DNA of 64,000 nt from an uncultured virus (IMG/VR IMGVR_UViG_3300031612_000007) (lineage: Duplodnaviria > Heunggongvirae > Uroviricota > Caudoviricetes > Schitoviridae), in IMG/VR virus record IMGVR_UViG_3300031612_000007; one strand, 5' to 3'. Position 1 is the first letter of the stretch. Every line of letters starts with the position of its first letter. The notes under the pieces were generated by a model, which had not been told where the DNA came from, made no database searches, and worked only from the letters and a program-made list of their open reading frames with translations. Positions 14,901 to 51,927 of this stretch are shown here, one piece after another. The translations under genes were made by a program, and so were the position numbers.

Positions 14901-17900
14901 GCTATTAAACGGTCAAGGAAATCTAAACTTACTGCGTCAGGGTTACGAGCCTCAGTAGGTATTTTCAAAAGACTATTAAATTCTTCATGTGCTAAAGATA
15001 AAGCTGCAAATCTAGCCAAGTAATCTGATTTGCCGTCTTCACGAGCTTTTGCACTAAAAACAAAATCATATAGTTCTGTAGCATCTTCTAATGTGTTTGC
15101 TCCGAATTTACCTCTGAAATCTTCTGGAGTAAGCCGATCTTTAGTTTCTTTAAATAATCTTTTTAGCTCTGTGCGCAATGATTCATTGGTTACAGTATGC
15201 ATATTAGAATCTAAAGCAGCACGCATAGTAGCTTCAACTTGTTGTATAACGAAACCCTGCTGCTTATTGCCAGTAAATCCTGAACCTAGTATTTCCGATG
15301 CAAAGGGTGCTTTACCATCGTCTAACGCCTTAAGCCACACTTCTAAGGGGTTACTAGCCGCATCCTTCCGTAAGGCTTCCTTGAAGCTTCCAAAGGGCCC
15401 GTGAAGCTTATCAACGATACCTTCTAGTAATTCACGAAGGTGATCTTTAAACTCTGGTGCTCCTCTCCCATCATCTGGGAATGCGTTAAAAATATCTAAT
15501 GTAGTGTATGCTTCAATATCTGCATCTATAGTAGTTCCTGATATCATAGGCAGTATAGTAAGCCCACCTGAAGTATCCCCTGTATCTTTAGCATCCCTAC
15601 TCTCAATAACTTGTTCCATAAGCCCTGAGACATGCACTATTAGTTCATGCATACCAGTGACAGCTGTGCTATCAGTCCTAGTCCAAGAACCAAAGAATGC
15701 GCTAGCAATCTCAAAGATAAACTCCTGTAAGCCATCTCTAAGGGTTGAAAGCCAAGACTCCTGCTTATTCTCTGGTGGTGTTAGTTTAATTAATACTTTT
15801 TGTTGGAACTGAGTGTTAGACATACCCCAGGATATAAATTCGTCTAGATTACTAGTTGCTGCATTAAAACCTCTAAGTTCTTTCTCGGAAAACTCTTTCC
15901 TATTGGCCTCAATATATTCTATAGCTTGTATACGTAATTTCCCTAAAGCAACAATATGTGGGTTATTTGTTTTCTTTGCAATAAATCCAGATAATGCCGC
16001 ATGCATCAACTCATGTACTAATAGCTCATGGGTTATTCCAGAGTTTTTAAATTCGGTACCTAGAATAGCAACTCCTACTTTTTGCCCATCTCTATATGTC
16101 CAACCGCGTACCTCTAAGTCTTCTGGTACGCCACGGATATCCTCTTTCTTTGTATCAGCAGTAATATAAGTAATCGGCAAATCATCTGGTAATGCTAGCT
16201 TTAACTTAGTTAATAGTTTTAGATAGAAATCACTATTAGTTACACCAGTATCCTTACCATATGTATTTTCTAATATTTGAAATACTTTCTTAGCTGTGGT
16301 CTTTTTATTACGCTCAAAAAAGTCAACCAAAGCAGTATTAGACTCTGTGTTAGAGGTCCCTAATTTACCAAACTCAGTCTCTGTAACTTGCTCCTCCCCA
16401 AAGTCAAGTTCTCCTATAATTGATTTCTCTGCTTTGCTTACATTTGAATCAAGCTTATTACCAGCTTTATATAATTCTAGTAGTTTTGTATTTGCCTTTT
16501 TACGGAACTCTTGTGGCACTTCAAAACTACTAGTATGAGAGGCATATTGTCCAACATTTTCTAAATTTTGTAGTAACTGGAACTTAAGTTCATTTGCTTT
16601 AAAAGTAGACTCTACTATACCCGAGATTGTTTGCCCTAGTACTTCTCTCCCAGAAGTTTTAATATAGTCACTATTCCATTTATTATCTCTATTTATCTTT
16701 TCTGCGGTATTTGTTAAAAATATTGTCAATGCTTGTAAGGTATCCGGAGAGAGCTCTCCAGCTTTTATCATAGTAGAGACACCTTGAACTACCCGCTCTA
16801 GAGTATTAGCTAGCTCTTCTCCTGGAGAGTATGCCAATACAGACTTAGCAAAGTTTTCGTTTACTAGTTTTACAATACCGTCATGGTTACTTAAACTCCC
16901 ACCTAGACCATCATGTATGTTTAATATATCGTACTCTAATTGTGTAAGATGGGATGTTTGGCTATCAAGTGAATGGGTCAACCATGCAGGTGTAGATATC
17001 CCAACACTTTCAAGATAGCTTCTAAATCCTCTGACAGATGCTGAATTAGCACCACCCACAGTTTTCCTATTGTGACGGACTCTAGCTGTATAAGCTGAAT
17101 TACCATACTCAGCTGTACTACGGAAAGATTTACCCAAGAATAAACCACTCTCTAAGTTATCCTCTGCTTTTGACATTGCAGTATGTACTATTGGTTCTAT
17201 TCCCCTTTCCTTAAGTGATTTAGCAAAGGCAGCTTCCTGTTTAGCATTCATATCGCTAGCTGGATTTCCACTCTTAGTTTTTGCTATTTCACCTTTCTCC
17301 ATTAACCTTTCAATCTCTACTTTACGTTCGCTTTCATAAATTACTATATATAAACCACTAGCCATTTGTGCTGCTTTATTAATTTTATCTTGACGATCTA
17401 TAAATACTGCAAAATCTTCCCTTAGTATCTTTATAAGCGGGGCACTTATGTATTCTTTAAACTCAGCTTTTAATTTAAGTACTTGGTCGTCAGTAAGTTC
17501 GGTCTCCATAAGTGTTTGTATGGACAACTCAGTATTTAGTAGCTCAGCTCCACCTTTTTCGAGGAGCCAGTTTACACTCTCAATATAAATATCAAGTTCT
17601 TCTTTATGTTCGTTACGTTGCGCTTTAGTTTTATTAGTACCATAACTGTTATATTTTACTGATATACGCTCAAGCCCCTTATAGTATTGACTAATAAAGT
17701 CATCTCCTAGTTTCTCTTGTATACGAAACATACTAGAACTAAACATTAGAGGATTAAAAACACCTTTAATAAGCTTTCGCATATCGCCAGCAAAGAGCGG
17801 CTTAGCAATTACTTCAATTGAGGCGATTATTGGATAGGATTCATCCCTAAAGCTATCCATGTACGTATCATCTGCCAAAACATCTTTTAACTTTGCACCT

Positions 17901-20900
17901 GTAGCCTCATAAATATCTTTATTTCCATGTTTACTTCTCCAAGCAGGGTAATTCGCGTAACTATCTCCTTTACTAAAAATACCACCTTTTATTACAAATT
18001 TTGCTAAGTCTTTAACATTATTAAAGGCCCCATATAGAATATGGTTAATCATAGTACCATTGGCTACACCATCAGTTACTGATACCATCTGTACATCAAA
18101 TGTTTGATTTTTATTACCCGTTTTTGCCTTCCTATCTTTAGCAGCCTTATAAGAAGCTAAATTGACAAGAGCATTAAGCGATTGTACATTCTGCCCGCCT
18201 GCTTCTACTGCAACAGCAATATCATTTTGCTGATCAGGAGTAAGAATTACACCATCAGTTAATAACTCTGTTATTGCGTCAATGGCAGCAAAATATGGTA
18301 ATTCTTGGTTAGATATTCTTTTTTGAACTTCAGACCAAATAGAATCAAATTGTCTCTCTTCAATTCTAATTCCTAGGTCTTCAGCAATTGTTAAGGCAAA
18401 CCTTGTCATTGCTGGATTATCACCTATCGTAATAGTTTCTTTCCATGATGTTGCAGCGGATAGGTAGCGAGATATTTTACTGTTTACTGGATTAAAATCT
18501 GCTTGGGCAATTCCAACTCTATGCTGTTTCCATACTGTATGGTCATAATAGAAGGGTGTATCAAGACCTTCTTTAGAAGGTATTAATAGTTCGTTAGCAA
18601 AACGTACAATATTGTCGTATTCTAATATTCTTGCTGTATTCCCCGCTTCTGCGCCAGGCCGATTAATAACATGAGTATTCTGAGGAGTTATAGTAGGAGC
18701 TCCAAGTACTCTAAACAGTATAGGATTATTATCCCAAATATCTTTATTAGACCCTATAAGAGACTCTAATACTCTTACAACAGGTACATTTAAATTATGC
18801 TTAGTCTCAACTTTTTTATTAATAACATCTATTAATACTTCAGGAATTAGAGATGTAATAGTTCTTACGCCGCTTTTAATCTTAGTATTAATAGACTTAG
18901 TTGGACTTAAAGTAGGTGTTTTATTTCCTCCTTCTACGCCAAATAATTTATTAAGTATGCCTTCTGACCCACTAGTAATCTCTCTAATCTTTTCAGCTTG
19001 TGGAGACGGGAGTTGTTGAGTGTACTTCTTCTTAGTCTTCACCCCACGTGTTATTGCATAAAATATATGTGCAGCTTTATCATCACTTACATCAGTCCTT
19101 TTATGTACTTCTACTTCCCCAGATGTTGTAGGAGCCACTGTAGGCTGACCAGACTTCCTTTTACTAAGTTCTTCTATTTGCTTACTATCAAGACCTTCTT
19201 GTACTAAGGTCGTCATACTCTTATTGGTTATAGATGTAGCTACTATTAAGCCTGAATCTTCAGCTAGTTTTAATGCATGTTGCCCTAAGGTAGCACGTAA
19301 TCTAGCTTCCCAATGTTGTCCTGTAGTATTCTTTGCTTTAAGTCCTAAGGCTTGCATAACTGTGGTGCCTAAACTATCTAGTAATATAGATCTAGATACT
19401 CCACTAGTCCCTAATTCTTTTCTTGCAGTCTTAGATACTGGTGTATCTCTATCTCTTCCTAAAATCTGATTAATACGTTCATCTGATAGACTAAAGTTAT
19501 CACTAGCGTGATCGCCTATATACTTAATAACTGCAAGGGATATAGCAAGTTTAACATTCTCTTCTGTGTCTCTAACCTCACCCACAGTATCTACGAAGTA
19601 CTGCATTACATCATTTTGCCTGAGATTATCTGGTACAAATTTTGGTAAGTTTTCCTGAATATTATCGAACCATTTTGCTGATGTAGAAAAGAATTCTTTT
19701 ATTGCTTGATCTTGTTTTTCAGTTAAACCCTCAGAATCCAAGAAATCTGCAATTTCAATTTCCTTTTTCTCATACGCTGTATATAGATCTTTAACAGTAA
19801 TCAGTGGGTTTGTTTTTCCATCAGTACCAATACCATCGGTCTGTAGAAAGTCCTCAGCTATAATCTCACGAAGTTGACTTTCAGTACCATCTTCACCTGT
19901 TATAGCAGGTTTAGATTCTCTATTAAGCGCATTTAATCCTTTAATTTCTTCTACAGGTAATGCTGCTTCCGTTTGTTCTGCCTTTTTTATTACACTCCTA
20001 GGTATATGTCTAAAAGTTAAGCTAACTCGTTCAGTCTCTGCTGGTCCTACCGCATGTAAGTACTCTTGTTGAAACTTACCATCTGGCATAGTGTATATAT
20101 CACCACTCTCTGCCGTAAATGACATACTTTCTCTCTTACCACCGTTACGTGTTATCGTAATCTTTGCCTCTCCACCAAAACTAACAGTGACTACAGACCC
20201 TATAGTTTCATCATCACGTAAGAAAATACTTTCAGCATCTGCGTGTTTACCAATTTTATTACCTGCAGGAATTACATTCATTAACCCACTATTAAGGTAG
20301 CCTGGCTTATGTCCAAGTTCTTGCTCTAAGGTTTCAGCTATCTTGATAAGTACTGGGGGCATATCTTTCTGCACATGCTCATATGTCCCATTCGAGTACG
20401 AATATGGAACTGGCCCAAACCAAGCAGTATCTCGAGCTTTTTGTGTCTCAAGCTTATTAGATTTAATTAATTGTTGGATTGCTCCACTTTTATAAAACTT
20501 TTCTAACTCACTAATAGGCGTAAAACCTTTTATAATGTTGAGCCCATTAGGAAATATAATTATATCTTTATTATCTATTTGCTCTGGATTTTCTGCCCTT
20601 TCTTGGGTCCGTATTTTATCTAATATACGAGGAAATTCTGTTGTCCAAATATCAGATCCATAAGGGCCCTTATGGGTAATCGTCTTATTACCTGATTCCT
20701 TTAATAGCGCAAGCGCCTCAACAGCTTCCGGTTCCCCAGAAGCAAGAGAGGTACGTATTAATGTATCCATGATGTCTAAATTCTTATCTCTATTCTCGCT
20801 TAGACGACCACGAAGTTTATTATTTTTCCCCCAACCCTTGTAATCATACGTTTGTTGATCAAATTTACCAGACTTCACAGTTTGGTAAGCATGTTCAACT

Positions 20901-23900
20901 GATTTATACTTTATACCTCCATATGTAAAAGGTCGATTAGCAAGATTACTAAGGATTGCATTCTCCCCTGAACCACTCCATATATTAAAATCTTCTTCTT
21001 TTACTTGTTCTGATTTTTCTTGATCTTGCTCTGCCCTTTCTTGCATGGCAGCTTCTGCTTCGTCTTCTATTTCTGATGATATTTTATGAGCCTCTCCACC
21101 GTCATATTCTTCACGTATACGGTCTCTTAGTAATTGAGCCCCACCATCCACATCCTCTAATTCTGCTTGCGTAAAGTATCCATACTGTTCTAGCTGTGTA
21201 GCTAGATCAGATAAGTCAGTAAACTTTCCATCTTCTTTAAATAATGAACCAATGAATGGGATTCCCTGATTGCCTTTAGTATCACCAGTTATATCAAGCT
21301 TCAAAGTAGTACTGATACCACCCATCTTAATGATAGCTTCATTCATGGTATCGTCTGAAGTAATAACCTTCTTTGATTCAGCTCTTTGTTTAGCAGTAGA
21401 TTTTTTAACCTCTGCCTTTACTTGTTCTGTTTCCTTTGTTTTAACAACTGAGGCTTGGTCATCATCATCTCCGCCCCCTTTAAGGTCATCAAGAGGAATA
21501 TTAGAGAATACGAGATTATACTGGGATTCCATTGCCGTAAGAGCAGCTTTAAGCGCCCGTGCTTCACTCTTAATTGCATCAATTAACTTAAATGAGGTTT
21601 TCCTAATTATTAACCCATTTCTTTTCTTTAACTCTGCAGGACTTAATGTCTCACCTTTGTTTACACTCCAACCTTTATTGGCATCAAGAACTGCTTGTAC
21701 CTCTTCATTTGGTTTAAGTGCTGCATGTATATTAGACAATGCCCAAGCTTTATCAGAATGAGCAGTTGCGAATTTCTTTAAAGCATCTATCTCATTAGCT
21801 GCTTCATTTGCTTTATTAGCTTTTATTGCTTTGTTGAAAACTTGGGTATGTTGAAGAAGTCCTTTATTTCCTTGGTTGCCTTCAAATATATCCTTGGATG
21901 TTAAAACTAAACCTTCAGAAAACTTCTTAAGCTCTCGTGCTTTTGCTACTTTGCGTAGGAAATCCCTCTGTGACTTAGTAAGACCATTACCTTTATTGTT
22001 AGCTATCTTCTTTAGCTTTTCAGTAGGTACTCGGTCAGTATTCTTCATAGCATGTGTTATCACTATGTTAGCAGCCCGTGTAGCCTCTGTATTATCACTT
22101 GGAGTAGCAGCTACCTCCTTAGTATTTGCACTACCAACTATTTTTTCACGTATTCTCTCAGCGAGAGCTTCTGGTTTTTCTTTAGAATCAAGAGTTAATC
22201 CTAGAGCTTCTGCTACTCTCTTCATGGGTGCAGTACTCATTACTGCCCCACCAGCATCATCAAAGCTTTTTATGAAATCTATTGCCGCAGACATTTCTGG
22301 TGTTAGAGTATCTGTACCAGCAGCTTTATCTATTAGCTTGTCCATTACCTTGTTTGGTATTACATACTCGTCTAACTCAACTTTTTCTTTTCTAGCTCTA
22401 ACAAGTATGGCTTTTTTCTCAGCTAGTTCTTTCTCATAAGCTTTTCTCTCCGCCTTTGATAGTTCCCCTTTATCTTTCCTTCGATCAATCTCAGATTGGT
22501 AAGCATCTACAATTGTTTTAAGTTCTGTTATCCTAGACAAATCAGGGGATTCAGCTGATTCAAGTTCTTGTACCTGAAGTGAAGCCTTATTAACTATACC
22601 TTGTAAGGTTTCAGTACTCTCTAATATTCCCTCTAATGCGGTCTCTTTTTTAACTAATGCTTCAATTGCATCATCAGCTGTCTTTAGGTGCTCTTGCTTA
22701 GTTTCTTCTGTTGTATCTTCTCTTTTGGCATTACCATGTAAAGCCCTTATAGCCTCATCAGGGGCATAAGTCTTCTTATTAGCAGGGTCAACCATTGAAT
22801 TTATATCCCCGCTCTCTATGGCTGCAGCACTCCTCTCAGCTAAACCTTTCTCTATAGGATCATCTTTAAATCTAGCTTTCTGCGCAGATAGCTTTGCACC
22901 TTCATGTAAAGCACGACCACTACCAGCTAATCCAAGACCAGCAACTCCACCAATCACACCGCTTGTAAATATATCTTTAGGTGTTGCAGGCTCATCAACA
23001 ATCTTACCTTCTATGTATGTTTGATAGGCTTCAGTAGGAGCTTCAGTAATTAAACCTACTGTGCCTCCCTTAGCGGTTTCTTTAACTGCTTTCGGTATAC
23101 TAGTACGATTAGCAGCATCTCCAGCTGCTTTCGTAACTGCTTTGCCTGCTAGCTTAGTCATACCTAAACTGACTACATCACTACCATGCTCTACAACAGC
23201 AAGCATAAGTGCATTTCCAGCCATCTCTTCTTGTTTTTCTACTGAGGGTAGTTGTCCATTATGTTTTTTCTTATATGCCTCAAGTCCCATCTGATACTGT
23301 TCTATTGCATAGCCAGCATTACTACTCACTAAAGCAATAGTACCTGCTTTTCCAAATACTCCAAGAGCAAGTTGGGGTATATTCTCAACTATATACTCTA
23401 CTGCAGTAGCTTTATTATTAAGTACAGCTGACCCAGCATTAGCTATTAACTTACCTACTCCTGAGGTTAGTTTAGAGAGTCCAGCGATAAACTCCCCTTC
23501 CTTAATCTCATCTACTCCTTCAGTAGCCTCAGAATAGTTTTTCTCAAAGCCTTCACCTATTTCTTTAGTGAAAGCTTCACGCCCAGATTGATCAACAATA
23601 TTTCTTACATTGTGATATTCATTAATTTCTTGGGCTGCAGCACGGTTCGCTTGTGAAGCTTTTATATTCTCTAATGGTGTTTGTAGATTTGGGCTGGGTC
23701 TAGTATTTAAGAGGTTGATATCCTGAGGGGTTGCTTTACCACCTTGGAATCTATTGTATGCAGAGATATGGCTATTATCAACATTTGCATTGTAAATGCT
23801 AGCCGTTACACTATTGGGCAGCTGACGTAAGTGACCAGCAACACGAGATGCTCCAGATACAAGGGATGCGGCAGTATCTACTACATTACCTGCGACACTA

Positions 23901-24112: not shown

Positions 24113-26443
24113 CTATCGAGACGTATTATCTGGATCAAGCCAGCGATAGGTACTACCTTTTAACAGTCCAGCATCTTTAAAGCGATCCATAAGAATTTGT
24201 TGTTCAAATTTGCTTAATACTCTACCTTGTTTACCGGTACCCATTAATTGGTCACGTAATGTTTTTACTAATTCAGTGACCTTTCTTGGTTGAACAATAC
24301 GCTTATTGGAATCTGGTTGCATTTCACCCCTAGGCATAACAACTCTATCTATTGGGTCCCCAGAGAAGATTTCTCTATTAGAATATCCTTTTAGAAGTTT
24401 ATCCTTGCTATCCCTATAATTAGAGCGTCTATCCTTGAGATCATCAATAATTTCTTGATTACGACTACTATTAAGTGGTTTCCAACTCTCAGGAATACTT
24501 ACATCATTAATATCGAAGTCTCGAATACTTTTAGCAGCTGCTCTCCCAATTTCTACTGATTTTCCACCAATTTCTTTTGCAGCCTCAGTAACCGCAGGGT
24601 TTATCCCAACACTACCATCTCCCATTAAGGTATTAAATAGGCGAGGACCGGGCAGCTTTGATATCATCCGTTCTACTTCTGGATTACCATCCCTCATGTA
24701 TGGCACATCTATGCCTGGTGTCATATTCTGAATTAAAGCTTCAATTGGGTTGATTTCGTCTAGTATGTCCTTTTCAAGTAGTAATTGTATACCAGACTTT
24801 GGTGCTCCAGATTTACTGCTATCCTCAATAGCTGATTCAATCTGGTCATAAAAGGTCGTTATACTATTTGAAGCATTACCCTTTCCACCATGCATTTCTA
24901 ACATTTTCTGTCTATCCGCCATTGGCATTGGGTTTCTATCTTTCCAGGCATTAGCTACCGCGTAAAGCGTATCCTCAATAGTTATATTGCCTTCCTTGTA
25001 CGCCTTTTTATAGAAGCGCAAGTCATTAGCTAAAGTGGTTTTAACCCCTTGTGATAGACTACCAATCTGTTTCTGTAGCTTGAAATCTCCACCTTGTTCG
25101 CCACGACTTTCTGCCTTCAGTTGGGCGACTTCTCGATCAAGTGCACTTGTATCTGGTTCATTATCAAGATCGCCTGGGCGTAAGGCATTAAGCCCACCAG
25201 TGTAGACACCTTTGTTTTCTAGTTCGTATTGTGGATAGTCGTCTTTATGCACTAAATCACCTTTTGATGATATAGTAAAATCAGCGGGACCGGCTGGAAC
25301 TCCTGACACAGGTACATCACTACCCCCTCCTAAAGGAGCATTCCCTGCTTCCGGATTAAGTCCAGCTTTATTGAAGTAGTCCGCTACTTCCCCATCAGTA
25401 ATCGACTTGAGACCATCATCTCCTTGTAAATCTTGTAAAGTAGGGCGTTTGGTATTCTTTAGTGCATTCGTATAGTAATCACGGAGTTGATCTCTTCCCT
25501 CCATAAATTCTACGTTTTTGGGACTTTGGTAGAAGAAATCTATTGCAGTACCTAAACCCTTAGCAGCGTCATCAGCAGAACCAAATGTGCCTTCCGGACG
25601 AGCATCATACCATGCGGTGTTCTGATTCTTAACATACCTTGCAGCAATACTAGCAAGGTCTTTTGGACTCATACGTCCATACTTTGCATTTGATGATACT
25701 TTGTTTGCAAGGGCCCTCTTAACGACACTTCTAACTTTATCAGATACGTCTTCAAATCCATCAATTATTTTATAAGCCTCTTCTAGACCACCAGAAGCTT
25801 CTTCTTTTTGGAATGTAGTAAAGTTTTTCGCTATCTTTTCCTGTCGAGTATCTTGGTCATTCTTCAATGCTCGATTCTCTTTTCTTTCCAGCAAGCCAAG
25901 CTTCGTTTGCTCTACATTTGCTGCTGCTTTAGCAGCATTCTTATGAGACTTAGTTGTGGCCAAATCTTTAAGGAACGTACTATCACTAGGTAATGTTGCC
26001 AGTAATGCGTCACCCTCTTCCATCTTGTCTTGTATATATAGAGAGTGAATCTTATTTACAAGCGGCATTTGAGCATGATCTTTTGTTGCCTGTGCATATG
26101 TCCTTTCTTGGGATATTGTATTTAATCTATTTAAGTTCTCAGCATTAAGTGTTCGTAATCGTGCATCAGCACCACCAACTGAAGCTATTCTTCCGGCTTG
26201 TCCCATCCCTTCTTTTAAAGACGCTAATTCTGGACGCATGGCTTCTAGTTCTTCGGGTGATCTCGCAGAATTTAAAAGTTCTTTGAATGCTAGAACATCT
26301 CCAGCATTTTTATTTTCTGCATATTTAGTGAATGTGTCAGATATTTGATCAGCACCTGCACTCATGCCACTAAGGGCTGAACGCATTCCTTGAAATGCCC
26401 TACCACTACCCATACCAGATACATTATTCCAATTAATAGCCAT
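24113..26443 (-). CDS. Internal virion / ejection protein (N4 gp51-like)
   Basis: 776 aa, MAINWNNV start, directly upstream of vRNAP, no Cys seen. Confidence 0.65.
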   Translation of the reverse strand: MAINWNNVSGMGSGRAFQGMRSALSGMSAGADQISDTFTKYAENKNAGDVLAFKELLNSARSPEELEAMRPELASLKEGMGQAGRIASVGGADARLRTLNAENLNRLNTISQERTYAQATKDHAQMPLVNKIHSLYIQDKMEEGDALLATLPSDSTFLKDLATTKSHKNAAKAAANVEQTKLGLLERKENRALKNDQDTRQEKIAKNFTTFQKEEASGGLEEAYKIIDGFEDVSDKVRSVVKRALANKVSSNAKYGRMSPKDLASIAARYVKNQNTAWYDARPEGTFGSADDAAKGLGTAIDFFYQSPKNVEFMEGRDQLRDYYTNALKNTKRPTLQDLQGDDGLKSITDGEVADYFNKAGLNPEAGNAPLGGGSDVPVSGVPAGPADFTISSKGDLVHKDDYPQYELENKGVYTGGLNALRPGDLDNEPDTSALDREVAQLKAESRGEQGGDFKLQKQIGSLSQGVKTTLANDLRFYKKAYKEGNITIEDTLYAVANAWKDRNPMPMADRQKMLEMHGGKGNASNSITTFYDQIESAIEDSSKSGAPKSGIQLLLEKDILDEINPIEALIQNMTPGIDVPYMRDGNPEVERMISKLPGPRLFNTLMGDGSVGINPAVTEAAKEIGGKSVEIGRAAAKSIRDFDINDVSIPESWKPLNSSRNQEIIDDLKDRRSNYRDSKDKLLKGYSNREIFSGDPIDRVVMPRGEMQPDSNKRIVQPRKVTELVKTLRDQLMGTGKQGRVLSKFEQQILMDRFKDAGLLKGSTYRWLDPDNTSR

Positions 26444-39159: not shown

Positions 39160-39587
39160 TAGTTAGATATTCCTACATTAGTCACACTACTAAGGGCGGG
39201 ATCGCCATAGTATTTTTGTAAAAGCGCATAAATCTTAGCTCTAGCGCTTTCTTCTGGTTGTTTCATCATAGGAGGTGCCTCTTGCGGTTGTAAATCTGTT
39301 ACCTCACCTCCAGGACCATATGCACTCATTGAGCCCAGAAAATCAGGTTGTTTTACCTCTCCATGCTTTGCAAGTCGATCATAAACTGTATTCCCGTCTT
39401 CTCCTCGATTTCTACCACTTGCTAAGAACTGAGCCCAAGAATCCCCACCCGCCGCAGGCGCTTGAGATGTAGGAAAGGGTGTTGGTTGTGTTCTCACTAC
39501 TGGGGTGGCAGAAGCGAAAGGGGCAGTGGCCCCTTGAGCTCTTGATTTTGGATATATATTATTAAATGTATTAACTGCATTATACAT
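39159..39587 (-). CDS. Hypothetical Pro/Gln-rich protein
   Basis: 142 aa, coupled to the lysozyme gene. Confidence 0.55.
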   Translation of the reverse strand: MYNAVNTFNNIYPKSRAQGATAPFASATPVVRTQPTPFPTSQAPAAGGDSWAQFLASGRNRGEDGNTVYDRLAKHGEVKQPDFLGSMSAYGPGGEVTDLQPQEAPPMMKQPEESARAKIYALLQKYYGDPALSSVTNVGISN

Positions 39588-39590
39588 ATA

Positions 39591-39785
39591 CTATGTTTCC
39601 CAATCGCGCTTATCGCGCTCTATATCATCTAATTCTTGTACTGTATGCTGTTTGCCTGCTGAAAACCGCAAGCTTTTGACTATCTTATCCTTACCAACTT
39701 TGCGCCAGTTAGATATATGCCATAGTAAAGTATTCCTGCGACCACTACCAGAACCGTGAAGGAGCTTCTTTTTAGCCATTGACAC
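39591..39785 (-). CDS. Hypothetical protein
   Basis: 64 aa, AGGTG RBS. Confidence 0.5.
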   Translation of the reverse strand: MSMAKKKLLHGSGSGRRNTLLWHISNWRKVGKDKIVKSLRFSAGKQHTVQELDDIERDKRDWET

Positions 39786-39840
39786 ATTATTTCACCTTTT
39801 AGAATAAAATCTAGCTACAATATGAGCATTCTACCACCAA

Positions 39841-40545
39841 TTAACTAATTATCTCCGCATCATCAACCTCAGTTGGCACTACTTCTAGCTTCGACCCAGC
39901 AATAATACCGGCTGTAGTCTGCCCCGCCTTCATTAATAATCTCTGATTGGCTACTAATTCCAGCGTAGCCGTCCTAAGTACATTGATTGAACTGTCTTCT
40001 TTAATACCAATATCAAGCTCAACTTTCTTAACTTCAGGCATTTTAAGCTGTGTTAGCAGTGAATTAGCTGCATCAGTCCTAACCTTCTCGCTTTTAGCAG
40101 TTACCATCAGCTCCGCCTGTACATTTAGGGCCTTTTGGTACATATCCTGATTTAGCACATAACTAGGTATCAATGTCTGCTCATATATAAGATTGACCAA
40201 TTTACTCTTGTTATATGCAGTCACATAACTAGCTATATCTTTAGACGCTACCCCTTGTGTAGCAAATCGTAATATTTTTTCTGGGAACGTCTTACTATAC
40301 CCATCAATATGAGAACAGCCCATGAGCTTATGGCTCACGTATTTCACCGCAGAGATATACTCGCGCATCTTAAACCTGCCATCCTTCATAACCCCTGCGT
40401 AGCTAATCAGATTCTCCCTATAAGCCTCATACAGCTCTGGTTCAGTCAATGTCTTGTTGATTTGATCTATCAAAGCTTGGTTAACTGATTTTCTTACCTT
40501 ATCTGGTAATGCATGCTTGAATTGCTCAACTGTTAATGCCGTCAT
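39841..40545 (-). CDS. Terminase small subunit (N4 gp69-like)
   Basis: YI.AVKYVSHKLMG, YNKSKLVN.I.EQ..IP, SEKVR.DAANSLL..LK. Confidence 0.8.
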   Translation of the reverse strand: MTALTVEQFKHALPDKVRKSVNQALIDQINKTLTEPELYEAYRENLISYAGVMKDGRFKMREYISAVKYVSHKLMGCSHIDGYSKTFPEKILRFATQGVASKDIASYVTAYNKSKLVNLIYEQTLIPSYVLNQDMYQKALNVQAELMVTAKSEKVRTDAANSLLTQLKMPEVKKVELDIGIKEDSSINVLRTATLELVANQRLLMKAGQTTAGIIAGSKLEVVPTEVDDAEIIS

Positions 40546-40893
40546 GTAAGACCCTTTTGGGTTAGTGTATCGGGAGAGTATAGATTAAATCCAGAGGGTT
40601 AGGGGAAAAATTATTTTTTTGGGTTTTGAGAAATTTATAATTTGGGTACGATTGCAGGGATTGAACTGTCAAGGACTAGAAGCAAATACTCCCCCCCTCT
40701 ATATCTGCAAATTAGGTTATGGGCACGACTCACCACCCAAAGGCACACCTCAGGTCAAAACCGAAGGCACACTAAGGTCAACTACCACAGTAGTGATTGC
40801 TGAACACGACTCACGCGCTACGCGGGAGAAACAGGCAAGCCTGTACGGGCTGGAACATTCACCCGAATGCTTCCCAATTAATTGGAGACTAAT
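40546..40893. other. Divergent non-coding region, probable genome end / terminal repeat
   Basis: Separates the late (-) block from the first small + genes; homopolymer tracts and short repeats; corresponds to the N4 genome ends by gene order. Confidence 0.5.
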
Positions 40894-41085
40894 ATGAGTA
40901 ACGCTTTCGGTATGGTTTGGAAGTTTCTTTACCACCTCTTCAGCGGTGCAAACAAATGCGCCGTAGCTTTCGAGAACATTGCTACCGTAGGTGAGATTAG
41001 TTCAGTAATCTACCTAAACGAGCAGAAGCACAACCTCGCTAAGCTTGAGAAGGTGTCTAAGAAAGAGCTCGATGCTATGAAATAG
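40894..41085 (+). CDS. Small early protein
   Basis: GGAG RBS, ATG 40894; similar to the next gene. Confidence 0.65.
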   Translation: MSNAFGMVWKFLYHLFSGANKCAVAFENIATVGEISSVIYLNEQKHNLAKLEKVSKKELDAMK

Positions 41086-41147
41086 TAGCACGACTCATAC
41101 CTGTGCACCGCTCGGTGTGCAGGTTGTTAATCAACTTCGGAGGATGT

Positions 41148-41375
41148 ATGTACAAAGACATTTGTGCTTTCTTTAAGCTTTTAAAAGCAGCTTTTGTAGC
41201 AACTAATACGCTTGCTACTATGCATGATTGCGGCTATCGTGGTACGCCTGTGTATTCTCAGGTGTATGTTGATGAGCAAAGGAAAAACCTTGCTCGACTC
41301 GAGAAACAGGCGAGTACACAACTCACAGAGCGTAACTACATGCCTGTGGAACCTGTTGATTACATTAGAAGATAA
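41148..41375 (+). CDS. Small early protein, probable paralogue of 40894-41085
   Basis: GGAGG RBS, ATG 41148; YVDEQRKNLARLEK versus YLNEQKHNLAKLEK. Confidence 0.6.
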   Translation: MYKDICAFFKLLKAAFVATNTLATMHDCGYRGTPVYSQVYVDEQRKNLARLEKQASTQLTERNYMPVEPVDYIRR

Positions 41376-41446
41376 ATCCACGACTCATCTATCCCACACT
41401 GGGGTAGGTGGGTCCAACCCTTTAACCCAAAGCCACACATAAGGTT

Positions 41447-41500
41447 CAAGATCAAAAGCAACGTCAACATCAACATCAAAGGCAGAATCAAAGGCAAAAG
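41447..41500 (+). repeat. Degenerate hexamer tandem array (CAANNN x9)
   Basis: caagat caaaag caacgt caacat caacat caaagg cagaat caaagg caaaag. Confidence 0.7.
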
Positions 41501-41659
41501 CGATAAGGTCAAAAGCAAGTTCTAGGACAGTCACGACTCATTTACTGAGTAGGGTATCGGACAGTCAGTAGCTAGGTTTACTGATTACCTGTTATTCCTA
41601 CTTACTTAAGTACTTTACTTAGATAGTCCAAATACGATATCACTACGGTATCTTTAGTC

Positions 41660-41956
41660 CTATACCTTCCTATTCTTTCCATACACTTCTGGAGAACTTC
41701 TTCGCCATCCTTTATTCTTCTTCTCACCTACTACTTTGAGGTTACTTAACTTAGTATCACCACCCTTATCCAATAACCTAACATGGTGTACGTTCTTACC
41801 ATCACCCTTGCTAGCCTTGCCTGCCTTCACAGCTATTGCTCTAGCTTGGTTCTGTTTAACCCTACTAGCTATCCTATCAGGATGTGCGTTGTAGATTGCT
41901 TTGTTACGTCTGGCTTTATCATACGCTGCTTGGGATTGTCCTTCCTTCTTAGGCAT
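41660..41956 (-). CDS. Small HNH endonuclease-like protein
   Basis: GDGKNVHH...KGG....NLKV.....N pattern; basic; AAGGA RBS. Confidence 0.7.
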   Translation of the reverse strand: MPKKEGQSQAAYDKARRNKAIYNAHPDRIASRVKQNQARAIAVKAGKASKGDGKNVHHVRLLDKGGDTKLSNLKVVGEKKNKGWRRSSPEVYGKNRKV

Positions 41957-42273
41957 AGTGTTTCCTTATATATATAAGAATACTAACTTCCAAACGCACG
42001 CCTGTTCCCGACTCGCGTCGGAAACGCTGAGCGTTTGTAAGCATTGGGTGGGGTTGCTTTTGATTATAGTACTTGCCTCGGTGTAAAAAGTTATATCACA
42101 TACATAATATCATTGTCAAGTGAAAGGTCAAAATCTCGGGAAGTGCTCCCTCTCGATATCCTTCATCTCTTATCGTCTTATTTTCGTATTAGGTTGGAAA
42201 CAATCACGGGCAAGCCCGTATTTACGGCGATATTCTCAGCCAAATAACGTACTATTTATTTAGGAGATTTAAA

Positions 42274-42540
42274 ATGATTGACTTTAAAGATTCAGACAAA
42301 ACAGTAGATTCCAACTCAACTTGGAAGAAAGCTGATGGTTTTATTAACATTACTTTAGAAGGAACTGATGGTTCTTATCCTAAGTTAGGCGCAATTGGGT
42401 TGCATTTGAACAAAGCCCAAGACAAACGCCTAATTGAGTGGCTTTCAAAAGATCCAGAAGGTAACAGTGCAAAATTAGCTCAGAGACTTAGAGTTAATTA
42501 TCGTTCAGCTCAACCAGCAGCTGAATTCAAATTAGATTAA
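42274..42540 (+). CDS. ssDNA-binding RNAP II cofactor (Drc / N4 gp2-type)
   Basis: 88 aa, A.GFINI.L...DG...KLG.IGL...L.EWL; immediately before the RNAP II genes. Confidence 0.65.
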   Translation: MIDFKDSDKTVDSNSTWKKADGFINITLEGTDGSYPKLGAIGLHLNKAQDKRLIEWLSKDPEGNSAKLAQRLRVNYRSAQPAAEFKLD

Positions 42541-42550
42541 AGTCCCACAT

Positions 42551-42590
42551 AGCCTTTACTGACACATAGTCAGTAAGGGTTATTTTATTA
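42551..42590 (+). terminator. Terminator
   Basis: CCTTTACTGAC-ACATA-GTCAGTAAGGG followed by TTATTTTATT. Confidence 0.7.
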
Positions 42591-42637
42591 GATAGATAGT
42601 CAGAAAGTCCCTTACTACTACTATAGGAGTTCAGGTC

Positions 42638-43546
42638 ATGGATACAAATCAGCAGATTCTAGCCCAAGAAATAATCGAAGGTACCTATAACCGTAGACAT
42701 ATTGATACTAAGATCCGGAAGGTTATAGAAAGTCATCCACTAATACAATCTAAAGTTCTTCAAGGTATTGATTTAATTAATAAATACTTACAAGGAACAT
42801 ATTATGATAGTAAAATGAAGAGAGTCGCTCAGTTAAAACTGATGGATATTCGTGAGTTAGTTATAGATATCTTCATAGGTATCACATACTTTCAAGCTCC
42901 TGAACTATTCACTTCAGCATCTGCACAACTCGCTATGCGGTTGAAGTTTAGTAACCAAGTAGAAGCTATTGCAGCTACAGCTGACTTACTAGCAGTACTC
43001 TGTAATACAGATGCCTTTGATATCACTAAGGAATCTAAAGGTGCTAGCCTTAAAGTAGTATCACGTATACCTATAGAAGATAGTTTAGTATCTTTCATTA
43101 AGGACAGTGAGTTCTTACCACCTATGGTATGTGCACCTTTACCACTAACTCATAACTTTAGTAGTGGCTACCTTACTCATAACGACAGTCTAGTACTAGG
43201 TACAGGTAACCATCATGATGGAGACTTGTGTCTATCAGTACTTAACACTATGGGACAAGTAGCTATGAAACTAGACACTGAGTTCTTACTTGAGATGGAG
43301 GAGACACCTAACTATAAGTTAGATACCGCTGATAAGATTAGTCACTGGCAAGACTTCAAACAACAGAGTAGCTACTTTTATATACTTATGCTCCAACAGG
43401 GCAACCGTATATATTTCAATCATAAAGTCGATAAGAGAGGGCGTATCTATGCTAGTGGCTACCATATCAATCCTATGGGCACTAGTTATAAGAAAGCTAT
43501 GCTCGAATTTGCTAACGAAGAACTAACAGAGGGAGTACCGCTATGA
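42638..43546 (+). CDS. RNA polymerase II subunit 1 (N4 gp15-like)
   Basis: LPPMV..P, DKRGRIYASGYHINP.G (DxxGR), YKKA. Confidence 0.92.
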   Translation: MDTNQQILAQEIIEGTYNRRHIDTKIRKVIESHPLIQSKVLQGIDLINKYLQGTYYDSKMKRVAQLKLMDIRELVIDIFIGITYFQAPELFTSASAQLAMRLKFSNQVEAIAATADLLAVLCNTDAFDITKESKGASLKVVSRIPIEDSLVSFIKDSEFLPPMVCAPLPLTHNFSSGYLTHNDSLVLGTGNHHDGDLCLSVLNTMGQVAMKLDTEFLLEMEETPNYKLDTADKISHWQDFKQQSSYFYILMLQQGNRIYFNHKVDKRGRIYASGYHINPMGTSYKKAMLEFANEELTEGVPL

Positions 43547-43836
43547 AAGTAATACTAGAATTTGAAAGTGAAGAAGAGTTTAGGGAATACAAATACAAAT
43601 TAGCAGGTAAAAGAAAATTTGATCCAGGGAGTTTTCATATAAATAGCCTTCAGATTAGTAATGCTATAAAAAGAAGGCTTATGGCCGCAAATAAGAATTT
43701 GGTCCGAGATATCAGCAGTATGACAAATATAGAGTTATATAGATTACCGGGCATTAGTTGGCAATCAGTTGCTGAGATAGTTGCAGCCCAACTTTTACTC
43801 ACTAATACATCACTTAAAATAACCTTTACTGACTAA
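43543..43836 (+). CDS. RNA polymerase alpha-CTD-like (helix-hairpin-helix) protein
   Basis: INSLQIS.AI..RL.AA....V.DI..MT..EL..LPGIS..SVAEI aligns by eye with RpoA CTD (VDDLELTVRSANCLKAE.I..I.DL...TE.ELLK.PNLG.KSL.EI). Confidence 0.65.
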   Translation: MKVILEFESEEEFREYKYKLAGKRKFDPGSFHINSLQISNAIKRRLMAANKNLVRDISSMTNIELYRLPGISWQSVAEIVAAQLLLTNTSLKITFTD

Positions 43837-43850
43837 TTTAAGGAAACCAA

Positions 43851-45098
43851 ATGATTAACTATTCAGGATGGCAATGGCTACTCATAGATGTAGCAAACCA
43901 GTTCGGACTTGACAAGCTTACCTTTGAAGACCGTATTAAATGGACTGAAGATAACCTTGAGAAGTTAGAATCCTTAGACTCTGAAGTGTCTATAAAGAAG
44001 AGAGCGTTGTATATAAAAGCTCGTCTTGCAGTTCGTAAAGCACTAAATGGTTTTCCTACAGGGCACATGGTAGGTGTAGATGGTACATGTAGTGGCATCC
44101 AGATAATGTCAGCTCTAACAGGCTGCGTAGAGGGTGCTAAAGCTACTAATCTGACTGATCCTACCACTCGATATGATGCATATACAGAAGTTACAGAAGC
44201 TATGTCTAAGACTTTAGGTAGTTCTATCTCAGTATCTCGAGATGATGCTAAAAGCGCCACAATGTGTAGTTTCTACGGCTCAAAAGCTGAGCCTAAGAAG
44301 ATCTTTGGAGAAGGGTCCCCTCAATTAGAGGCCTTTTACAAAGCTACTACTAAGATTGCACCGGGTGCATGGGAACTATTACAAGACCTCCTATCTAGCT
44401 GGCAGCCTTATACTTTAAGCCATAACTGGAAATTACCTGATGGATTTGATGCACATGTAAAAGTCATGACTAAACGTACTGTACGTATAGAAGTGGATGA
44501 ACTTCCAGGACATCCTACTTTTAGTTATGAACTTTATGATAATGCAGGTGAAAAGAAAGGCTTAAGTAATGTAGCTAATGTAGTGCACTCCATTGACGGA
44601 TTTATCGTAAGGGAAATGCATCGTCGCTGTAACTATGACCGTAAAGTTATAGATCAAGCAGCTCTGACTGTTGAAATTGAACTAGTTGCACGGAATATAG
44701 GCAAGGTTTACGATGATAAATGTTTTGATTCAAACATTGAATATTATCGTGATCAATACCATTACAGCGGTATGCCTAGTATAGTAATTGCTCCGTATAT
44801 AGATACAACTACTGTTGCATATCTAAGTACAAAGCATCTTGTGGCTCTATCCAAGATAATGAATGGGATGCTTCAGTATCGTCCATTCGATTTAGTTACT
44901 GTACATGATGAATTCCGATCCCTTGCAAATAATGTTAATTGGGTTAGATGGCAATACAAAGAAATTCTGGCACAGATTGCAGATAGTGTATTACTTGATG
45001 ACCTAATAAGTCAATTACATCAATCAGTTGGTACATTCCGAAAATTGTCGCCTAACTTAGGTGATCAAATAAGGAATTCTAACTATGCTTTAGTGTAA
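43851..45098 (+). CDS. RNA polymerase II subunit 2 (N4 gp16-like)
   Basis: Motif A DGTCSGIQ, motif B RDDAKSATMCSFYG, ANVVHSIDG, motif C VHDEF. Confidence 0.95.
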   Translation: MINYSGWQWLLIDVANQFGLDKLTFEDRIKWTEDNLEKLESLDSEVSIKKRALYIKARLAVRKALNGFPTGHMVGVDGTCSGIQIMSALTGCVEGAKATNLTDPTTRYDAYTEVTEAMSKTLGSSISVSRDDAKSATMCSFYGSKAEPKKIFGEGSPQLEAFYKATTKIAPGAWELLQDLLSSWQPYTLSHNWKLPDGFDAHVKVMTKRTVRIEVDELPGHPTFSYELYDNAGEKKGLSNVANVVHSIDGFIVREMHRRCNYDRKVIDQAALTVEIELVARNIGKVYDDKCFDSNIEYYRDQYHYSGMPSIVIAPYIDTTTVAYLSTKHLVALSKIMNGMLQYRPFDLVTVHDEFRSLANNVNWVRWQYKEILAQIADSVLLDDLISQLHQSVGTFRKLSPNLGDQIRNSNYALV

Positions 45099-45142
45099 CA
45101 GCCGGACTCCGTGCGGTTTTTTGATTTAGTGATACTTTTATG

Positions 45143-45180
45143 TGGACAGACCCGAAAGGGTTTGTCCATTTTCTTTTTAT
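45143..45180 (+). terminator. Terminator after RNAP II genes
   Basis: TGGACAGACCC-GAAA-GGGTTTGTCCA followed by TTTTCTTTTT. Confidence 0.8.
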
Positions 45181-45193
45181 ATCGGAGATAATT

Positions 45194-45580
45194 ATGGGCT
45201 TAGACCAGTATGCGTATTCCATTTCTAATCGAGTTGCCGGAACTAAACAAGTAGATATAGAAATGCCACCTAGAACTAAGAAAAAAGAACTTGCATTTTG
45301 GAGAAAATTCAACCATTTACATGGTTGGATGCAATCTCTATATTACGACAAGAAAGGTCTAGATAATCAGTTTAACTGTGCGTCTGTTCGCTTAATGCCT
45401 GCAGATTTAGATGCTCTTGAGAAGGCTTTAATAGCCAATACATTACAGCATACACCGGGGTTCTTTTTCGGTAGTGCTGAGATATATCCTGAAGATGTTA
45501 AGAACACTTTAGAGTTTATTACAGAAGCTCGAGTTGCCATTAAAGAAGGGCGTGCAGTAATCTATGATAGTTGGTGGTAA
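45194..45580 (+). CDS. Conserved phage hypothetical protein
   Basis: GGAG RBS, MGLDQY...WRK.N.LHGW...GFFFG...Y.SWW family pattern. Confidence 0.75.
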   Translation: MGLDQYAYSISNRVAGTKQVDIEMPPRTKKKELAFWRKFNHLHGWMQSLYYDKKGLDNQFNCASVRLMPADLDALEKALIANTLQHTPGFFFGSAEIYPEDVKNTLEFITEARVAIKEGRAVIYDSWW

Positions 45581-45666
45581 TCCAGGACTTATAAAAATAC
45601 TCAACCCGATATACTATTTTCATCAGAAAGTCATTTTTTGACTATATACAGCCTGCAAGGAGACAA

Positions 45667-45885
45667 ATGGCAAATAACAATAAACAATTACAACTGTTCC
45701 CCGAAATAGAACCGACAGTCGCACCACTATTTCCAACCATGGGTAGCTTACAGGATGTAATTAATTTAGCTGAAAGTAGCTTACCCATAACAAATAGAAA
45801 TGGTATTTATGCGCTATTAATGACATATCACAATACTTTATTAACAGAAGTTCAACAGCCTTCGAGAGAATATTATGAAGATTAA
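45667..45885 (+). CDS. Hypothetical protein
   Basis: AAGGAG RBS; LLMTYHNTLL. Confidence 0.65.
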   Translation: MANNNKQLQLFPEIEPTVAPLFPTMGSLQDVINLAESSLPITNRNGIYALLMTYHNTLLTEVQQPSREYYED

Positions 45886-46888
45886 TATAGAACAGGCTTT
45901 ACGCGTTATACCTACATGCATTAAATCTAGACTGGTTCCTATGTTGGTTGGTAGCCCGGGGATTGGTAAATCACATATTGCCCACCAAATAGCATTAGAA
46001 AATAATCTAAAGGTTATTGATCTACGTTTAGCGCAATGTGACCCTTGTGATATTTTAGGTTTTCCTAACATAGTTGGAGATAAAGCTGGTTACATCCCGA
46101 TGGAAACATTCCCCATAGAGGGTGATGAGCTTCCTGAAGGGCATTCAGGTTGGCTACTCTTCTTAGATGAATTCAATGCAGCTCCACCAGCTGTTCAAAG
46201 TGCAAGCTATAAACTTGTATTAGATCGTATGGTTGGCATGCACAATTTACATAGTAGAGTAGCCATCATGTGTGCAGGTAATCTAGATACTGATGGTGCT
46301 ATTGTTCAAGAAATGAGCACAGCACTGCAGTCACGGCTTATTCACTTTGAATTAACAGCAGATCCAACCACTTGGTTGAACTGGGCTATGAATAATGAAA
46401 TTGATCATCGAATTACAGATTACATTAAGTTTAAACCAGGCGATTTGTATACATTTACCCCTGACCACACAGATAAGACCTATGCCTGCCCACGTACTTG
46501 GGAATTTGTTAGTCGTTTACTACCTGATATGACTGAAGATGACCCTGATATGCTTCCAATACTATCTGGGACTCTTTCAGAGGGCGTAGCTCGTGAGTTT
46601 GTTGTATTTATGAAAATCTACGCTAGCTTACCTAAACTTTCCGAGATTCAAAAGGACCCTCAGACAGTCTTCATTCCAAAAGAGCCTAGTATCTTATTCG
46701 CATTAACTGGCTCACTTAGCCATAACATGAAAGCAGATACTGCTGATCAAATAATGTTGTATGTCTCCCGACTACCAGTTGAATTTCAAGTAGTGACATT
46801 ACGAGAGACTGTAAGGCGCAACAAAGAAATGTTAACTCACCCAGCTATACAAAAATGGGTTAATGAATCCTCAGCTAAACTATTTTAA
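45875..46888 (+). CDS. MoxR-like AAA+ ATPase (N4 gp24-like)
   Basis: GSPGIGKS, LFLDEFN, AGN, ALQSR, PRTWE. Confidence 0.9.
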   Translation: MKINIEQALRVIPTCIKSRLVPMLVGSPGIGKSHIAHQIALENNLKVIDLRLAQCDPCDILGFPNIVGDKAGYIPMETFPIEGDELPEGHSGWLLFLDEFNAAPPAVQSASYKLVLDRMVGMHNLHSRVAIMCAGNLDTDGAIVQEMSTALQSRLIHFELTADPTTWLNWAMNNEIDHRITDYIKFKPGDLYTFTPDHTDKTYACPRTWEFVSRLLPDMTEDDPDMLPILSGTLSEGVAREFVVFMKIYASLPKLSEIQKDPQTVFIPKEPSILFALTGSLSHNMKADTADQIMLYVSRLPVEFQVVTLRETVRRNKEMLTHPAIQKWVNESSAKLF

Positions 46889-51429: not shown

Positions 51430-51927
51430 ATGCACAGTCTTACACAAGAAGAATTAAAAAGAATAATGGAATTTGACCATGTTACTGGTATTTTCACTTG
51501 GTCAGGTGCTGCTAAAAATAAAATGCGAGCTGGAAGTAGAGCTGGGACTAGTAATACTACTGGCTATATTTGTATTATGATATATGGCAAGCACTATCGA
51601 GCACACCGATTAGCCTGGTTATGGGAATACGGAGAGTTTCCCGCAAAGGAAACAGACCATATAAACGGAATCCGTAATGATAACCGTATAGCTAACCTTA
51701 GACAGGCAACTCACCATGAGAATATGCAGAATCAACGAAAGATGCATAAGAATAACTGCTCAGGGTATCTCGGAGTTTATCCTTCAGGCTATATGAAGAA
51801 ACCTTGGAGAGTTACCATAAGTGTAGACAATAAAACAAAACATGTAGGGCATTTTGTAGGTAAAGAGGAAGCACGCGATGCTTATATCGAGGCTAAAAGG
51901 ATGTATCATAAATTCTGCACCATATAG
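51430..51927 (+). mobile_element. Free-standing HNH homing endonuclease (HNH plus AP2-like domain)
   Basis: AHRLAW, DHING.R.DNRI.NLR...N..N, SGYLGV, HVG.F....EA..AY. Confidence 0.9.

Follow-up and report, generated by a model that had tools for sequence, protein, structure and literature searches.

NADAR and AlkB-type modules inserted in the virion RNA polymerase of an uncultured N4-like marine phage

Virion RNA polymerase gene and its inserted modules

A stretch of 64,000 nucleotides from the IMG/VR record IMGVR_UViG_3300031612_000007, referred to here as the window, holds most of the genome of an uncultured, marine, N4-like (Schitoviridae-type) phage. Its minus strand encodes, in a single unbroken open reading frame (ORF) of 4043 amino acids (aa), an N4-type virion RNA polymerase (vRNAP) like gp50 of the Schitoviridae. 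The PHROG 2206 profile, 'virion RNA polymerase', covers aa 57-4035 of this ORF (E=0). A query with the core region retrieves 32 clusters of vRNAP homologues, and the N-terminal, core and C-terminal segments each match at least 25 vRNAP clusters; identity to known vRNAPs is only ~27-34%. The window also contains the neighbours expected of an N4-like phage, namely two RNAPII subunit genes and genes for the portal, major head protein, terminase, primase, single-stranded DNA-binding protein (SSB) and DNA polymerase. The vRNAP carries an in-frame inserted block of three modules, placed after the N-terminal domain and ahead of the polymerase core: an unnamed module, here termed M1, a NADAR domain and an AlkB-type Fe(II)/2-oxoglutarate (2OG) dioxygenase (Table 1).

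An original prediction, made by a model from the letters and ORFs of the window, had described in-frame NADAR-like and AlkB-like domains at this point, together with an unassigned module, within about 450 aa (positions 20000-21355, equivalent to aa 903-1354 of the vRNAP). Profiles, folds and catalytic residues agree on both domains, and the additional module ahead of NADAR is real and conserved. The length has to be revised. BLASTP comparisons with 14 further vRNAPs show homology along the backbone as far as aa ~845-855 and again from ~1343-1405, and the insert is therefore ~510 aa long.

The NADAR sequence of the window is, taken alone, below the thresholds of the family databases. It scores 20.9 bits against PF08010 (gp30.3; cut-off 36) and E 0.087 against TIGR02464, and the window's own domain has no match to PF08719 in Pfam. 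A profile made from the domain and 21 small homologues matches YbiA (2b3w) over 137 positions, the whole domain, at E 1.3e-8. At E<=0.01, 15 of the 22 family members match PF08719 and 8/22 match PF08010. A model of aa 866-1165 has a mean predicted local distance difference test score (pLDDT) of 82.8; in the NADAR part the block means are 80-98, mostly above 90. Foldseek ranks YbiA first and a Phytophthora NADAR with ADP-ribose (8bau) second. VIA-align against 48,161 chains gives Z scores of 12.2 for YbiA (2b3w), 11.6 for the Phytophthora NADAR (8bau) and 8.0 for a Geobacter lovleyi NADAR (8bat), and the next unrelated row follows at Z 3.6. The model indicates a YbiA/NADAR fold with the predicted catalytic residues kept.

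Two residues, E1056 and K1063, are invariant in the NADAR family alignment and lie seven residues apart. The catalytic E36 and K43 of T4 AdfN are reported to have this same spacing, and their mutation weakens rescue from DarTG1 (PMC11825919). A third residue, H1130, is nearly invariant and stands at the end of the last strand. At this place YbiA is described as having Glu, NADARs linked to DarT1 as having Asp and the gp30.3 proteins of phages as having His, and the residue is said to define subfamilies (PMC11125620). As the last-strand residue is His, the window NADAR is of the phage, gp30.3 type. E1056, K1063 and H1130 are probably the structural equivalents of T4 E36 and K43 and of the phage-type His. 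The best match to this NADAR amongst GenBank phages (39.6% identity, E 8e-15) is at 46382-46795 of MW749006.1, Bacillus phage vB_BspM_AgentSmith; the gene there, in a 200-kb genome, bears the annotation 'putative toprim domain-containing protein'.

The AlkB module is recognized directly by PF13532 (2OG-FeII_Oxy_2) at aa 1210-1351, with 44 bits in the whole protein and 50.4 in the sub-sequence (cut-off 31.2). With phmmer, the single sequence already finds ALKBH3 at E 7e-4; when 19 homologues are combined in a profile, the E values are 1.8e-16 for ALKBH3 and 6e-9 for ALKBH2. An AlphaFold2 model of aa 1161-1370 has a mean pLDDT of 90.8 and a predicted template modelling score (pTM) of 0.88. Its best Foldseek match is ALKBH3 with single-stranded DNA (ssDNA), at E 4e-12 and a template modelling (TM) score of 0.71-0.74, followed by ALKBH2 and E. 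coli AlkB. The module contains an HxD...H motif (H1273, D1275, H1336) and an RxxxxxR motif (R1345...R1351); in the numbering of the AlkB family alignment, H113, D115 and E117 are invariant. The model thus points to an AlkB fold in which the Fe(II)- and 2OG-binding motifs are kept. Scores against the NCBIfam AlkB equivalogs are far below cut-off (TIGR00568, 18.3 against 231 bits; NF011930, 14.9 against 267), which makes the module a member of the family and not a bacterial AlkB orthologue.

M1 is 38-62% identical to segments of polyvalent proteins and has 22 invariant columns across 10 sequences. It occurs in 14 retrieved proteins, and seven of the 11 that were scanned with Pfam carry ART-PolyVal, LPD38, InPase, LPD5/LPD1 or RadC. 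There is no named family for it in Pfam or NCBIfam, and ESM Atlas gives no usable match. A profile search of the PDB with M1 has its best match, a segment of a GGDEF/EAL protein, at E 0.34, and the fold search yields just Z 3.0-3.6 to the ETS and ArgR winged-helix DNA-binding domains, which is under the meaningful level. M1 is possibly a nucleic-acid-binding module.

Downstream of the block, the polymerase core is well marked. We take D1997 and D2384 to be the aspartates of motifs A and C, from their likeness to T7 RNA polymerase (RNAP). An alignment of 15 vRNAP sequences has D1997 and H2383/D2384 in invariant columns, and the expectation that motif A would lie near aa 2000 was right, its aspartate being D1997. 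In the zincin-like motif HELMH, the H, E and H are nearly invariant across the vRNAP alignment; the window protein has no Pfam peptidase match. The zincin (MPTase) reading of such motifs in N4-like RNAPs follows that given for the group in PMC5512222.

Two further observations concern the neighbourhood of the gene. An ORF of 776 aa directly upstream of the vRNAP gene, at 24113-26443, has no PHROG match at E<=1e-5. Two HNH endonuclease-like ORFs (47398-48528 and 51430-51927) lie amongst the replication genes, and the second of them directly precedes the DNA polymerase gene on its upstream side.

Table 1. Positions in the window of the vRNAP gene, its modules and key residues
Feature	Position	Strand	Basis
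N4-type virion RNA polymerase ORF, 4043 aa	11930..24061	-	PHROG 2206, ORF list, translation
Inserted three-module block, aa ~855-1365, between N-terminal domain and polymerase core	19967..21499	-	BLASTP, 14 vRNAPs
M1, unnamed ~105-aa module, aa ~895-1000	21062..21379	-	phmmer/hidden Markov model matches to polyvalent proteins
Codon 1016, start of divergence between window protein and P0003, in acidic linker after M1	21014..21016	-	Protein alignment, BLASTP
NADAR domain (predicted), aa 1022-1157	20591..20998	-	Profile and fold matches
NADAR residues E1056; K1063; H1130	20894-20896; 20873-20875; 20672-20674	-	Sequence
AlkB-type Fe(II)/2OG dioxygenase (predicted), aa ~1165-1356	19994..20569	-	PF13532, profile, model
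AlkB residues H1273; D1275; H1336	20243-20245; 20237-20239; 20054-20056	-	Sequence
AlkB residues R1345; R1351	20027-20029; 20009-20011	-	Sequence
Presumed motif A aspartate D1997 (TDGVANG)	18071..18073	-	Invariant column D198, alignment A4 (first row from aa 1800)
Presumed motif C aspartate D2384 (NIHDGLG)	16910..16912	-	Invariant H584/D585 of alignment A4
HELMH, zincin-like HExxH, aa 2683-2687, downstream of polymerase core	16001..16015	-	Sequence; vRNAP alignment

Payload slot, module exchange and distribution

In the same BLASTP comparisons, the slot that holds the block varies in relatives from 43 to ~1170 aa. L039, whose record is LUZ7-sized, has 43 aa there and P0019 has 63 aa, and in several others the length is 100-223 aa. 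L008 has 538 aa of unrecognised content. In P0039, ~600 aa include DUF7831, and there is also a cpYpsA SLOG match further downstream (aa 2783-2814). The ~1170 aa in L074 include a superfamily 1 (SF1) helicase (AAA_30, UvrD_C_2), and in P0150 the slot holds NADAR alone, at aa 873-1002. The vRNAP of the cultured Roseovarius phage RPP1 carries ART-PolyVal (aa 1023-1096) and a zincin (aa 1252-1387), both upstream of the core, and matches M90/SprT in Pfam. From these varied contents and lengths, the site before the core is a general payload slot with swappable modules, and the block occupies it. With its clean module boundaries, the slot provides a natural map of sites for foreign domains in a packaged protein.

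The helicase-bearing locus (L074:3947-15652, an IMG/VR vRNAP locus) encodes a vRNAP of 3902 aa, with the PIF1-like AAA_30/AAA_19/UvrD_C_2 helicase at aa ~841-1294. Payloads are found elsewhere in other metagenomic vRNAP-like proteins: cpYpsA and NADAR are inserted in the C-terminal region of P0123, and NADAR is at the N-terminus of P0014 and P0126.

Module exchange is seen most clearly in a sister variant, P0003 (4056 aa). It shows just four differences from the window protein in aa 1-1015 (BLASTP, 99.2% over aa 1-1020) and then diverges fully. After aa 1015, P0003 has AlkB (64% identity) followed by NADAR (41%), the order being swapped relative to the window, and its polymerase core is only 30% identical to that of the window. 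In this comparison the module starts are sharp, with FPNG/YPNG for AlkB and DFNIW for NADAR.

The pairing of NADAR with AlkB recurs in other architectures. A search of 1.84 billion proteins with the block, a query holding both domains, yielded 706 relatives, and co-occurrence was counted amongst retrieved proteins outside the window's own cluster. Nine of the 20 proteins of at least 900 aa with this AlkB type also have this NADAR type, in either order and with several spacings, compared with only one of 13 M1-bearing proteins with the pair (Fisher p 0.05); because the sample came from a two-domain query, this co-occurrence is just suggestive. NADAR of this type is present in six other polymerase-core proteins (P0003, P0014, P0112, P0123, P0126 and P0150). 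The recurrent pairing, in either order and in several architectures, suggests a shared substrate class and gives phage AlkB a concrete, testable role.

The complete cassette is rare amongst N4-like vRNAPs. In a tblastn census with aa 841-1370 against 50,697 GenBank phage records, which NADAR or AlkB types very distant from the window cassette would escape, there are four matches, none of them to an N4-like phage. The C-terminus of the vRNAP matches 469 GenBank records, and in none of these does tblastn find the block at E<=1e-3; megablast of 19900-21600 against GenBank phages gives no match. Amongst 77 IMG/VR vRNAP loci, taken from the best 80 of 122 matches and with 15/77 frames cut by a contig end, the longest frame contains any of the three modules in just two, L006 and L007, both from the window's own phage. 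PF13532 is on record for one of the 32 core-matched vRNAP clusters, the window's own only. A cassette already common in N4-like vRNAPs would have counted against the original prediction; on these counts, the cassette is not common.

Possible function of the modules

The vRNAP of N4 offers a guide to what such modules might do. It is described as a protein of 3500 aa, of which aa 998-2103 suffice for transcription. It precedes the DNA through a tail tube of 25 A, and four molecules are injected from virions. It transcribes the early genes and helps to transport the genome into the cell. Its promoters are ssDNA hairpins with essential -11A/G, -10G and -8G (PMC4496689). Guanines of ssDNA are ADP-ribosylated by the toxin DarT1 (PMC11543638). 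All four NADAR subtypes tested hydrolysed guanine-linked ADP-ribose (ADPr) on DNA in vitro (PMC11125620), and three phage NADAR lineages have been reported to counter DarTG1 and to be inactive on the thymine adduct of DarT2 (PMC11825919).

By analogy with these systems, we consider it somewhat more probable than otherwise that the window vRNAP is a polyvalent protein that brings with it, already loaded, enzymes for erasing base adducts from single-stranded DNA or RNA. Its slot would hold M1, a gp30.3-type NADAR ADP-ribosylglycohydrolase and an ALKBH3-like AlkB. If it behaves as in N4, a few copies would be packed in the capsid and leave it ahead of the DNA. The vRNAP would then refold in the cell, bind single-stranded hairpin promoters and help to pull the genome in by transcription. 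Attached to the polymerase, NADAR and AlkB would be present at the leading DNA as it enters, ahead of all phage gene expression. There, NADAR would remove ADP-ribose from guanines in ssDNA, the adduct of DarT1-type defence toxins, and AlkB would oxidatively remove N-alkyl lesions such as 1-methyladenine (1-meA) and 3-methylcytosine (3-meC) from ssDNA or early RNA. The polymerase would otherwise stall at either lesion, whether it lay in a promoter hairpin or in the template strand. Homology and the conserved residues are what suggest an AdfN-like role against DarT1.

Several points weigh against this reading. The phage is uncultured, and we infer packaging, injection and activity of the modules, as well as their substrates and benefit, by analogy. 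The NADAR sequence of the window misses the Pfam gathering scores. In one study, T4 gp30.3 and YbiA hydrolysed guanine-ADPr in vitro without rescuing cells from DarT1 (PMC11125620), so that activity alone does not prove counter-defence. The NADAR-AlkB co-occurrence was drawn from a biased sample. A few copies per virion would have a small capacity. DarT probably becomes active in the course of infection, perhaps once early transcription is under way. The 90% cluster of the window protein has 21 members (JGI, ENA, Logan), 14 of them full-length. Amongst these 14, only 10 of the 4043 sites vary, one of them in the block (P1236R) and none catalytic, and there are at most seven differences. Being nearly clonal, these variants say little on selection. 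Finally, in the view of the Aravind group, the main targets of phage NADARs are soluble signals derived from ADPr (PMC9503650), and the co-occurrence of NADAR with SLOG in other vRNAPs (P0123) fits that view.

No convincing family of repeated hairpins emerged when 39400-46000 was searched for promoters of the N4 style, and the argument from promoter guanines therefore rests on N4 and not on the window phage. One hairpin in this region, at 42549-42583, lies just upstream of the first RNAPII subunit gene and has 15-nt arms, 87% complementary, around a 5-nt loop. Its left arm recurs (93%) at 43819-43833, just upstream of the second RNAPII subunit gene. This hairpin could be a promoter or terminator element.

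A bolder form of the delivery reading, which we regard as quite unlikely, would couple the two enzymes. NADAR and AlkB would together form a cis-acting eraser of base adducts inflicted by defence systems, carried on an injected polymerase with single-stranded promoters and template. NADAR would clear N2-guanine ADP-ribose (DarT1) and AlkB those adducts, linked to ring nitrogens, that are beyond NADAR, possibly including the N3-thymine ADP-ribose of DarT2 by way of hydroxylation at the anomeric carbon. DNA ADP-ribosylation would then be unable to block early transcription or genome entry, and the crAss-type virion polymerases, being unrelated, would have gained this pairing by convergence.

The main rival to delivery of base-adduct erasers is the quenching of signals, which we judge rather unlikely. 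On this account, NADAR would destroy soluble immune signals derived from NAD+ or ADP-ribose, or toxic metabolites, at entry, and AlkB would reset methyl marks and not act in repair. The view of phage NADARs just cited (PMC9503650) speaks for it, as does the combination of NADAR and a cpYpsA SLOG domain in P0123, and phage AlkB has itself been suggested to reset methyl marks rather than to repair (PMC7824862). It fits the AlkB partner less well: NADAR is here joined to a nucleic-acid base dioxygenase and not to SLOG, Macro or Nudix. In addition, every NADAR subtype tested acts on guanine-ADPr in DNA (PMC11825919, PMC11125620), and a few copies tethered to a polymerase at the membrane would be poorly placed against a diffusible signal.

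It is very unlikely that the modules are an offensive payload acting on host nucleic acids, which could, for example, help takeover by removing methyl or ADP-ribosyl marks with a protective or regulatory role from the DNA or RNA of the host. The domains of polyvalent proteins are generally seen as effectors against host macromolecules (PMC5512222), and host adenine methylation has been raised as a possible target of phage AlkB (PMC7824862). However, the nearest structures, ALKBH3 and ALKBH2, are lesion-repair enzymes of ssDNA and RNA, a handful of tethered copies would be unable to process a host genome, and a host-directed role of NADAR was not found in the literature examined.

That the modules are passengers, kept as bulk or as a linker for packaging or ejection and not as enzymes, is highly improbable. 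The slot does tolerate from 43 to ~1170 aa of unrelated content, and the two large flanking domains of the N4 vRNAP are described as inessential for transcription (PMC4496689). Against this, the predicted catalytic residues are all retained in both enzymes, P0003 keeps both at only 41-64% identity, and both models are compact and confident.

The remaining explanation is an assembly chimera or frame artefact that joined unrelated genes. The window comes from a metagenome, and in some runs the Logan contigs are interrupted within the block: those of X12, X15 and X16 end or begin at 20179-20208, 21024-21053 and 21365-21394, with 30-base overlaps. The breaks of X15 and X16 at 21024-21053 adjoin codon 1016, where P0003 diverges, and both variants may be present in these runs. 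X15 has no contig below 21024, with ~67/100 of the run read, and this gap is given no weight. Set against these breaks, the block is present, 100% identical and within a 4043-aa frame, in two IMG/VR contigs that come from different samples. Of the words sampled from 19700-21800, at least 93% occur in each of 20 marine-metagenome runs from 19 studies, and 11 of the runs are possible sources; there are no RNA datasets amongst the listed runs. Run X19 has one contig across 19700-21800, with six differences, and the other runs (four compared) cover it in overlapping pieces. GC content and GC content at third codon positions (GC3) are the same in the insert as in the rest of the gene. With the junctions spanned by the IMG/VR contigs, the X19 contig and the 14 full-length variants, and with matching GC and GC3, a chimera is vanishingly improbable and is rejected.

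Comparison with known systems

The window vRNAP resembles N4 gp50 and the other Schitoviridae vRNAPs in its full-length PHROG match, its presumed T7-like motif A and C aspartates and its N4-like genome context. It is ~540 aa longer than the N4 protein as described in PMC4496689, and it carries M1, NADAR and AlkB before the core.

The NADAR module comes closest to AdfN (T4 gp30.3), other phage NADARs and the DarG1 NADAR antitoxins through the shared NADAR fold, the Glu-Lys spacing and the phage-type His, with a weak match to the gp30.3 family that is below the Pfam cut-off. AdfN is free-standing and made after infection, whereas the window NADAR is a domain of a probably pre-packaged protein. 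If the modules are active and injected, counter-defence would be in place before the expression of any phage gene and would be held at the DNA that needs to be readable. Published anti-DarT factors differ in being first made inside the infected cell.

The AlkB module is predicted to share with ALKBH3, ALKBH2 and E. coli AlkB the same fold (TM 0.66-0.74) and the same Fe(II) and 2OG ligands. Identity to these enzymes is 16-23%, and the module belongs to a phage and polyvalent-protein subfamily.

N4-like RNAPs have already been described as polyvalent proteins, always fused to a zincin (MPTase) and in some cases to lysozyme, PBECR1 RNase or ART (PMC5512222; Iyer, Burroughs, Anand, de Souza, Aravind 2017). 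As in that account, the window protein combines many domains of effector type in one polypeptide that is presumably packaged: a single ORF, with structural genes next to it, encodes RNAP, NADAR, AlkB and M1. M1, NADAR and AlkB also recur in giant proteins with ART-PolyVal, LPD38, InPase, LPD5/LPD1 and RadC. The original prediction had credited the NADAR and AlkB domains themselves to this work, an attribution that is not borne out by its main text, which has 0 mentions each of NADAR, AlkB, DUF1768, YbiA, dioxygenase and 2OG, the supplements lying outside this count.

The claim that the arrangement is novel holds in part. A literature search found no description of a NADAR and AlkB pair inside an N4-type vRNAP. 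Its elements are less new: polyvalent vRNAPs are published, as are the neutralisation of DarT1 by NADARs of phages (Johannesman et al. 2025; PMC11825919) and the DarG1 NADAR antitoxins (Schuller et al. 2023; PMC11543638), packaged NADARs were predicted earlier (PMC9503650), and there are at least six other metagenomic vRNAP-like clusters with NADAR. With the platform idea already in print, the coupling of NADAR to AlkB and the clean payload slot are the most useful new points.

A similar payload is seen beside what is probably another kind of polymerase. The crAss-like phage cr126_1 (MT774391, L085:8839-16047) encodes a 2402-aa 'DUF1768 domain-containing protein' directly beside a 'putative RNA-polymerase subunit', and the N-terminal NADAR of this protein is 33% identical to that of the window. 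The crAss-type virion polymerases are, we assume, of a different type and non-homologous to the N4-type vRNAP, and the likeness would therefore reflect convergent use of the same payload.

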